Positions 40,003 through 40,382 of a stretch of 64,000 nucleotides of DNA are shown one piece after another. The translations under genes and the position numbers were made by a program. The notes under the pieces are model-generated. The model was not told where the DNA came from, did not search any database, and saw nothing but the letters and a program-made list of their open reading frames with translations. Source of the stretch: Escherichia coli 042 (GTDB lineage: Bacteria > Pseudomonadota > Gammaproteobacteria > Enterobacterales > Enterobacteriaceae); the NCBI RefSeq assembly GCF_000027125.1, contig NC_017626.1; one strand, written 5' to 3'. The number at the start of each line of letters is the position of its first letter. Positions within the stretch are counted from its first letter, which is position 1.

Positions 40003-40382
40003 TCACATTGCCCACCAGCCGCAAATGTGGCATTGTTGGTGATGCTTTTGTTTTCCCTTGTTCCCACTGGCGACCCTTTTGCGGTCGCCTTTGTTTTGCC
40101 TGTTATCCGGCAATAGTGGCGCTTCGTCACCTGTCTGATATAATTCCACAGCTTATATTCATTTTTTGCGCAGTAGGTTAATTGTTCGCAAGGGCGCTCC
40201 GGCAACGGGGCGCTTTTTGTTTTTACCCACCAGCACAATAAAAATCTTCATTTTCCATTTTTGTAAAATTTCATGCTTTCCGGACGACTGGTCATATGTC
40301 ATTTTTTAGCAGAAGATTTTGCCTTGCTGGTGGGTAGCTTCCCGGTCAACACGATGTACCGTATAATCAACACCGCGTGTGG

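Follow-up and report, generated by a model that had tools for sequence, protein, structure and literature searches.

Opposed Chi sites and a candidate antisense RNA in the Bro zone of a helper-embedded satellite of Escherichia coli 042

Introduction

The 64-kb stretch of Escherichia coli 042 DNA analysed here (the window, numbered from its first nucleotide) carries a short inverted repeat close to a promoter-like sequence that points into the 3' end of bro, a gene encoding a protein with a Bro-N domain. The locus raises the question whether the repeat and the promoter-like sequence form one regulatory unit or are separate features that happen to be neighbours. To judge from its genes, the surrounding element of about 15 kb is a satellite of the capsid-forming phage-inducible chromosomal island type (capsid-forming PICI, cfPICI), embedded in a helper prophage. 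The repeat and the promoter-like site occupy a non-coding portion of the Bro zone of this satellite. In helper-embedded PICIs this dynamic zone separates the integration zone from the replication zone, and regulatory RNAs may be encoded in it (Tommasini, Mageeney and Williams 2023, PMC10111431).

Both outer arms of the repeat are exact Chi octamers, 5'-GCTGGTGG-3', in opposite orientation. The account favoured here is of an opposed Chi pair in a satellite spacer, with the palindrome as its by-product and a separate antisense unit beside it; taken as a whole, this account is given about an even chance of being correct.

The inverted repeat and its Chi sites

The outer perfect repeat is 12 bp long (TACCCACCAGCA and TGCTGGTGGGTA; coordinates of all features are collected in Table 1), and 89 bp separate its arms. 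The original prediction had described an exact inverted repeat of 11 bp around a gap of about 90 bp. The inverted match and the gap were confirmed, and ACCCACCAGCA indeed lies at 40225-40235, but TGCTGGTGGGT is located at 40325-40335 and not at 40326-40336, and the perfect match is 12 bp, not 11. Inside the outer arms a second perfect pair of 9 bp was found (AAAATCTTC and GAAGATTTT), and outer and inner arms together make an imperfect palindrome with 22/26 matched. For the 113-nt segment that contains the palindrome, the predicted folding energy is about -36 kcal/mol whichever strand is taken, with z between about -5.2 and -5.7.

Perfect inverted repeats of at least 11 nt with a gap of at most 150 nt occur 8 times in the window, compared with 2.2 +/- 1.4 times in dinucleotide shuffles. 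Since there are several such repeats per window and about two in shuffles, a single inverted repeat of 11-12 nt is unremarkable by itself. The arm motif, with one mismatch allowed, occurs 9 times in the window where 1.2 occurrences are expected; it is far from random because its core is Chi.

Chi is present 28 times in the window, compared with 2.1 times in shuffles. The satellite of about 15 kb accounts for 14 of these copies (8 on the minus strand and 6 on the plus strand), and Chi ranks first there among all 8-mers, the runner-up having 8 copies. The E. coli K-12 chromosome has a Chi density of about 1 per 4.6 kb; relative to this figure, the density in the satellite is about 4.4-fold higher (Poisson P of about 6e-6). 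The satellite thus shows an over-representation of Chi like that of genomes which use RecBCD and Chi. Related satellites behave similarly, as 24 such loci from IMG/VR contain 0.94 Chi/kb, versus 0.48/kb in phiP27-like phage loci, and P4 contains none. A third Chi lies near the repeat, at 40012-40019 on the minus strand, and two further close pairs were found in the satellite, one opposed (36040/36066) and one in tandem (37422/37484). Close opposed pairs are to be expected because the Chi density of the satellite is high, the pair at 36040/36066 being another example. Outside the satellite (1-27950 and 42950-64000) the window has 14 Chi sites, 11 on the minus and 3 on the plus strand, minus being the coding strand of the prophage late genes.

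RecBCD recognises Chi from its 3' side (PMC12315714). The left arm would therefore be active for an enzyme that arrives from lower coordinates and moves towards higher ones, and the right arm for an enzyme that arrives from higher coordinates and moves lower; each arm would face outward and be active for RecBCD coming from its own side. In lambdoid phages, abundant Chi has been linked to an absent Rec module (PMC12315714), and neither recombination genes nor anti-RecBCD genes are annotated in the satellite. By analogy, we infer Chi activity at the arms and a benefit to the satellite. Apparently without recombination or RecBCD-inhibitor genes of its own, the satellite would rely on the RecBCD and RecA of its host, as Chi-rich lambdoid phages do; Chi in both orientations would protect its linear and rolling-circle DNA from degradation by RecBCD and would recruit RecA-dependent recombination to it. 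The repeat itself would then have arisen as a by-product of the enrichment of Chi at a mosaic junction, and its action would be on DNA, by way of RecBCD.

Conservation of the repeat in related elements

The region 39900-40500, used as a query, is 99.8% identical in E. coli UMNF18. Alignments with other E. coli loci showed that the spacer of 380 bp between bro and a short block of plus-strand genes is a mosaic junction, assembled from modules that can be exchanged. The segment 40225-40382 was found complete in about 55 of 5426 complete E. coli genomes, always beside the bro allele of the window, the 3' end of which is present in 184 of them. At loci L003 and L134 sRNA2 (a neighbouring small unit, see below) and the repeat segment are missing (40100-40387), and at L004 and L005 homology stops exactly at 40225 and resumes in internal bro sequence. 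In the L006/L023 lineage the upstream module is a different one and both left arms are absent, with AAGAACTGC, which is not complementary, at the position of the left inner arm; the right half, bro and the promoter segment are retained. The deletion in L004 and L005 comprises 445 bp and joins 40225 to 40671 (locus position about 1826), with loss of the repeat segment and of the C-terminal half of bro; its left end is exactly the left Chi, and there is a 2-nt microhomology (TA).

Conservation of the arms and of the -10 hexamer discussed below was scored over 13 haplotypes. Single point mutations have changed the left Chi to CCACCAAC in L008 and the right Chi to GCTGGTGA in L034; the right outer arm is intact in 12 of the 13 haplotypes, and the right inner arm is unchanged in all type-A haplotypes. 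Even the most divergent lineage shows hardly any change in the block 40298-40368. Thus the Chi pair, or palindrome, is not a conserved unit, whereas Chi itself recurs: relatives have 2-5 Chi per spacer in differing sequence contexts, for example 4 minus and 1 plus within 500 bp in L007, or two copies in L134 that are both on the minus strand and 32 bp apart. A wider distribution was looked for in two scans of species-representative genomes, which gave nothing real, one match being a chance 20-mer.

Between the arms lies a core of about 60 bp which is shared with three kinds of phages. In phiP27-like prophages it occupies the gap between L32 and L33, where the lysis genes have ended and HNH/cos/terminase follow; in Stx2 phages such as P13374 it is found between the lysozyme stop codon and the antirepressor gene, and in a third phage type after the gene of a RecA-dependent nuclease. 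In the satellite and in all three kinds of phages the core stands directly past the end of a gene, in the direction of late or structural transcription. All copies contain the blocks GCUrAAAAAUG and UCCGGAAAGCAUGAAAUUyU (given in mRNA sense, minus strand), and the stretch between these is hypervariable but of nearly constant length. This variable stretch can form a small hairpin, stabler on the minus strand, with G-U and double (compensatory) differences between the phiP27 and Stx types. No Rfam match to the core region was obtained. The core is not a conserved protein, because the lengths of the open reading frames (ORFs) in it vary between 7 and 121 codons and the second block does not change even where third codon positions would fall; the mini-ORF MxxxxxSGKHEIL was rejected accordingly, stops and frameshifts being found in it. 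Two longer ORFs were also rejected as coding: the minus-strand ORF of 47 aa (40159-40302) varies in length and has stops and frameshifts in relatives, and the plus-strand ORF of 38 aa (40273-40389) gave synonymous and nonsynonymous counts no better than those of other frames and is frameshifted in two haplotypes. A minus-strand promoter in the core (TTTACA-N17-TTTTAT, with phage analogues) was set aside for its weak hexamers and inconsistent placement, and a derivation of bro and its flank from ant of Stx phages was rejected, the proteins being unrelated.

The right inner arm has two possible pairing partners, and in the lineage of the window the palindrome partly re-uses the shared core. A designed hairpin is a poorer fit to this than a local inverted duplication or a templated quasi-palindrome event. 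Such an event at the junction is the most likely source of the extra 12 + 9 bp of symmetry, which probably has no separate function as a hairpin.

Promoter candidate and antisense RNA

The promoter-like site was found as predicted, with TTCCCG, a 17-nt spacer and TATAAT on the plus strand, directed towards the 3' end of bro, and its -10 hexamer ends 15 nt short of the bro stop codon. The -10 hexamer agrees perfectly with the sigma-70 consensus; the -35 hexamer agrees with the consensus in three of six positions, and there is no TG at -15/-14 that would give an extended -10. A consensus promoter scan of the window did not call the site, because its -35 matches at just 3/6. TATAAT is unchanged in all 13 haplotypes, with variation in the 12 nt from the -10 to the bro stop, and the -35 reads TTCTCG in 5 haplotypes.

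Within the last 20 codons of bro the plus strand holds a further feature which is absent from the original prediction, a sequence with the properties of a strong intrinsic terminator. Its stem (40413-40436) has 10 pairs, 4 of them G-C, and a loop of 4, and in relatives the stem is better, with a perfect A-T pair instead of G-T. Transcription initiated about 7 nt past TATAAT would reach this terminator, which is on the same strand, after 40 nt. Units in which TATAAT precedes such a terminator by 20-110 nt number two in the window, both strands considered, and none in shuffles; they are the antisense candidate and sRNA2, both on the plus strand and separated by 220 bp. For a given terminator, the probability that a TATAAT falls within this distance ahead of it is about 0.01. 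The candidate RNA has a predicted minimum free energy of -20.8 kcal/mol (z = -3.6). From these features an antisense RNA of about 70 nt, starting near 40374 and ending at the terminator, is plausible, at a probability somewhat short of one half. The suggestion of a cis-antisense or small regulatory RNA thus gains an invariant -10 and a terminator on the same strand and is left with a poor -35, and it loses the repeat, which lies upstream of the promoter and so is not part of the RNA. In a search of the window for trans targets of this RNA and of two neighbouring candidates, RNA1 and sRNA2, the duplex energies were no better than those of shuffled RNAs.

Weighing of the explanations

Several observations speak against the favoured account. 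The orientation of Chi in the satellite is nearly balanced (8:6), unlike the strong one-way bias of the Chi-rich phages described in PMC12315714. Selection on each single Chi must be weak, because two haplotypes have each lost one. The nested symmetry of 12 + 9 bp exceeds what Chi density provides, and a hairpin could have been selected. As for the antisense RNA, its -35 is variable and agrees poorly with the consensus (3/6), and bro alleles that have no promoter segment (L003 and L134) also possess the terminator, which there backs up the terminator of RNA1. All homologues are at least 86% identical and the flanks are almost as conserved as the -10, so that the invariance of the -10 says little, overall divergence being too low. 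The predicted 5' hairpin of the RNA is lost in variants, which break pairs without compensation, and no covariation was found in it. Finally, of the 18 perfect TATAAT hexamers in the window, 8 are preceded by a -35 of at least 3/6.

These last figures also favour a reading in which the repeat and the promoter-like site have no function, the whole being a neutral recombination scar with no RNA starting at TATAAT. Chance alone would give an inverted repeat of 11-12 nt about twice per window, a -35 as good as the one found here belongs to 8 of the 18 TATAAT hexamers, the terminator predates the segment, and the segment is limited to about 55 of the 5426 genomes, compared with 184 that have the bro 3' end. 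Such a scar would leave unexplained the enrichment of Chi in the spacer and in the whole element, the position of TATAAT 20-110 nt upstream of a given terminator (probability roughly 0.01), and the near invariance of the block 40298-40368 even in the most divergent lineage, and we regard it as rather unlikely, at about one chance in four. A role for the palindrome as RNA was judged to be less probable still. The 113-nt hairpin would be formed on the minus strand, in the 3' untranslated region of bro or in late transcripts reading through from terL, where it could serve as a stabiliser or as an RNase III site in the manner of sib retroregulation in lambda. Read-through of embedded satellites by helper late transcription is expected (PMC10111431), and the symmetry does reach past Chi by 12 + 9 bp. 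The fold of about -36 kcal/mol (z about -5.2 to -5.7) could be counted in its favour, but this z-score is a trivial consequence of the repeat itself. Similarly, the Chi-destroying substitutions in L008 and L034 both leave G-U pairs on the minus strand, but two substitutions carry no statistical weight and an inner-arm substitution in L034 gives a plus-strand G-U pair instead. The small hairpin of the shared core, too, is stabler on the minus strand. Against an RNA role stands the L006/L023 lineage, in which bro, the right half and the promoter segment are kept with neither left arm, so that the hairpin is dispensable; there is also no U-tract after the hairpin on either strand.

The Chi-like boxes might instead be RNA pairing boxes of an immunity switch that replaces CI, seqA and seqC of P4. 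In such a switch, minus-strand transcripts would be bound at UGCUGGUGGGUAA by the 5' box of RNA1, UUGCCCACCAGCC, in competition with the hairpin, and this pairing would control read-through towards the icd-like and primase genes. There are indeed three copies of a box of 9-12 nt, two on one strand and one on the other, and the RNA1 box is invariant in 16 haplotypes, even where the partner sequence differs; the Bro zones of P4 and of some PICIs encode immunity RNAs that pair in a comparable way (PMC10111431). However, all of the boxes are exact Chi sites, and the enrichment of Chi extends over the whole element, coding regions included, which calls for no RNA explanation. Moreover, the Chi pair is not conserved, and no match to C4, isrK or c4-a1b1 was found by a search that detects all three in P4. 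The switch is therefore considered very unlikely. An equally small probability is assigned to an extended scheme, a new antisense-based immunity switch that would take over the function of CI, seqA and seqC of P4. In it RNA1, read-through of sRNA2 and the bro antisense RNA would pair, at the boxes and at the 3' end of bro, with minus-strand transcripts that read through from the helper; the 113-nt hairpin would be opened or closed by this pairing, which would thereby regulate how helper late transcription enters the replication and packaging genes.

Scarcely credible, finally, is the proposal that the arms are iterons around an AT-rich unwinding region, that is a satellite origin, or that the 113-bp unit is a miniature inverted-repeat transposable element (MITE). 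Inverted repeats flanking an AT-rich stretch of 89 bp are what suggests either, but the real iterons are elsewhere. The 8-mer GCGGGTTA occurs 17 times in the window versus 1.5 expected and is clustered in the interval from the primase stop to the ssb start (36167-36289), with a second cluster at 27999-28151. The placement of the clusters fits the published position of PICI origins (PMC10111431) and resembles ori/crr of P4. An iteron-type origin at the repeat was therefore rejected, the repeats there being Chi and the GCGGGTTA clusters lying elsewhere, one of them downstream of the primase gene. As to a MITE or other insertion element, no target-site duplication is present (TTTTT flanks the unit on one side and GCTTC on the other), the window contains no further copy, and in the 5426 E. 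coli genomes the full 113-bp unit is found solely beside bro, the core of about 57 bp occurring in prophages as well. This reading was likewise rejected, with neither a target-site duplication nor copies at unrelated loci. The two clusters contain direct and inverted copies, the second being located past terL near the end of the satellite, and by analogy they look like an iteron pair of the ori/crr type known from P4.

Organisation of the satellite and neighbouring small units

The gene order of the satellite was taken from the annotation of UMNF18 together with the intact ORFs of the window. The satellite spans about 27950-42950 and interrupts terL of a phiP27-like prophage, with which it is co-oriented; the two halves of the prophage gene are found at 42954-43981 and below about 27990, with the satellite between them. 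Helper-embedded PICIs sit in late genes of the helper, a terminase site being among 14 targets, and late transcription of the helper is expected to read through them (PMC10111431). On the minus strand the satellite begins with int (41560-42783), two AlpA-family genes and bro. Beyond bro is a short plus-strand block consisting of a YlcI/YnfO (DUF3950) gene at 39574-39771 and an ORF of 62 codons. The minus strand then continues with an icd-like gene, DUF4222, a DUF927 primase, ssb and perC, followed by an HK97-type capsid, protease, portal, connector, HNH, terS and terL. Tail and lysis genes are absent from the satellite annotation. A gene set of int, AlpA, primase, capsid and the like is that by which cfPICIs are defined (PMC10085698). 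The terS and terL of the satellite belong to the same P27 family as those of the helper.

The DUF3950 gene is divergent from the icd-primase operon, and its counterpart in the relative L009 is annotated as a HicB-family antitoxin. Together with the divergent region of 205 bp (39369-39573) it may be the repressor side of the satellite. A stop-free frame of 357 codons on the minus strand (39165-40238) runs antisense to the YlcI gene, the 62-codon ORF, RNA1 and sRNA2 and ends as the icd-like gene; pieces of it are labelled in RefSeq as pseudogenes ("hypothetical" or "icd-like, incomplete"). The frame is probably an annotation artefact over conserved non-coding DNA.

RNA1 and sRNA2 are candidate small units on the plus strand upstream of the repeat. 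RNA1 follows the 62-codon ORF. Its anti-Chi sequence is invariant, and its terminator shows compensatory changes between haplotypes (GGCGACC/GGTCGCC versus GGCCACC/GGTGGCC). A query of 601 bp (39900-40500) that includes RNA1 has matches in 717 of the 5426 E. coli genomes. The conserved body of sRNA2, about 75 nt, and its strong terminator are found in many P4-like and PICI Bro zones of E. coli. The antisense unit would be the third of three small units with the same orientation, all facing the main direction of transcription of the satellite.

Rfam was searched at permissive thresholds with the regions 36-46 kb and 39.35-40.48 kb and with ten related loci, and nothing credible was found in any of these. 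In particular, C4, P4-CI and isrK (RF01695, RF01394 and RF03163) gave no match at E<=1 in 36000-46000 and no relevant match at E<=10 in 39350-40480, whereas P4 as positive control scored 74.9, 60.8 and 44.1 bits in the same covariance search. The sRNAs Pas, AgvB and AsxR were considered and rejected, as they are located at other prophage positions, and the sequences of the region were not found in the literature, including the supplement of Tree et al. 2014.

Table 1. Positions of the features in and around the bro spacer (window coordinates unless a locus is named)
Feature	Position	Strand	Remarks
Left outer arm TACCCACCAGCA	40224-40235	-	Chi at 40227-40234; adjoins T-tract of upstream plus-strand terminator
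Left inner arm AAAATCTTC	40241-40249		pairs with 40312-40320
Conserved core, about 60 bp	40262-40325	-	common to phiP27-like prophages, Stx2 phages and a third phage type
Core copies elsewhere	L132 (phiP27) 1495-1570; L133 (Stx2 phage P13374) 800-862; L072 6975-7050		
Right inner arm GAAGATTTT	40312-40320		within quasi-palindrome GCAGAAGATTTTGC (40310-40323)
Right outer arm TGCTGGTGGGTA	40325-40336	+	Chi at 40326-40333
Sigma-70-like promoter candidate	40339-40367	+	-35 TTCCCG 3/6, 17-nt spacer, -10 TATAAT 6/6
Candidate RNA of about 70 nt, antisense to bro stop and last ~20 codons	40372-40445	+	start inferred, 3' end predicted
bro (Bro-N, 192 aa)	40383-40961	-	Pfam Bro-N E=7e-20; last gene of the int-alpA-alpA-bro block
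Intrinsic-terminator-like site	40413-40442	+	10-bp stem AGGCTGGTAT/GTATCAGCCT, loop TCAC, TTTTTT
RNA1 (candidate)	40008-40097	+	TTGCCCACCAGCC (Chi, minus, 40012-40019) in 5' hairpin; terminator 40069-40097
sRNA2 (candidate)	40136-40224	+	extended -10 TGATATAAT, transcript of about 75 nt, terminator 40190-40224 touching left arm

Comparison with known systems

The closest parallel to the Chi content of the satellite is found in the Chi-rich lambdoid phages of the LLS class (Zheng et al. 2025, PMC12315714), which share with it the identical octamer as the top-ranked 8-mer of a small mobile genome. As in these phages, no Red/RecET-like or RecBCD-inhibitor genes are annotated in the satellite and Chi is arranged in local clusters. 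Unlike them, the element is a satellite, a class not mentioned by Zheng et al.; its Chi sites are oriented 8:6 rather than strongly one-way, and the cluster is in an internal non-coding spacer and not near the genome end. In its gene content the element resembles the helper-embedded PICIs (PMC10111431), with int/AlpA, Bro-N, primase and SSB with an origin downstream of pri, captured late genes, and integration in a late gene of the helper with the same orientation. It differs in that the RNAs of those PICIs are sense-strand relatives of C4/isrK (P4 CI/seqA), whereas the candidates described here are on the opposite strand. Chi is not discussed for the helper-embedded PICIs in PMC10111431, and no link between Chi abundance and satellites was found in the literature.

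Recognising Chi in the arms corrects an attractive misreading, as the neat repeat next to the promoter-like site consists of the commonest functional octamer of E. coli, present twice. With about four times the chromosomal Chi density, and arrays in non-coding spacers, the satellite family would carry the pattern of no recombination genes and many Chi sites from lambdoid phages to satellites; the prediction is that satellite spread depends on host RecBCD. The Bro zone seems to hold up to three small units, none of them in Rfam and all oriented against the incoming late transcription of the helper; if expressed, they would be candidates for controlling the timing of the response of the satellite to its helper.

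In phage P22 the antirepressor gene ant is controlled by sar, a small antisense RNA from the immI region. The candidate described here resembles it, as far as its sequence allows, in being short and antisense, in having a constitutive-looking promoter and an intrinsic terminator at its end, and in overlapping a gene of the antirepressor type. The overlap differs, being with the arc-ant junction and the ribosome-binding site of ant in P22 and with the 3' end and stop codon of bro here, and Rfam gave no sar match in the repeat/promoter region. P4 immunity and lambda sib are similar in that short complementary boxes or a long hairpin past the integration or regulatory block could control termination or mRNA decay. 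The homology in sequence or structure to C4/isrK that scores strongly for P4 in the same search is missing from the satellite, however, the hairpin is missing in the sister lineage (L006/L023), and P4 is without Chi. Of the components, namely Chi sites, Chi-rich temperate elements, helper-embedded PICIs and antisense RNAs directed at antirepressor genes, each is already known; it is their occurrence in this satellite family that seems to be new.

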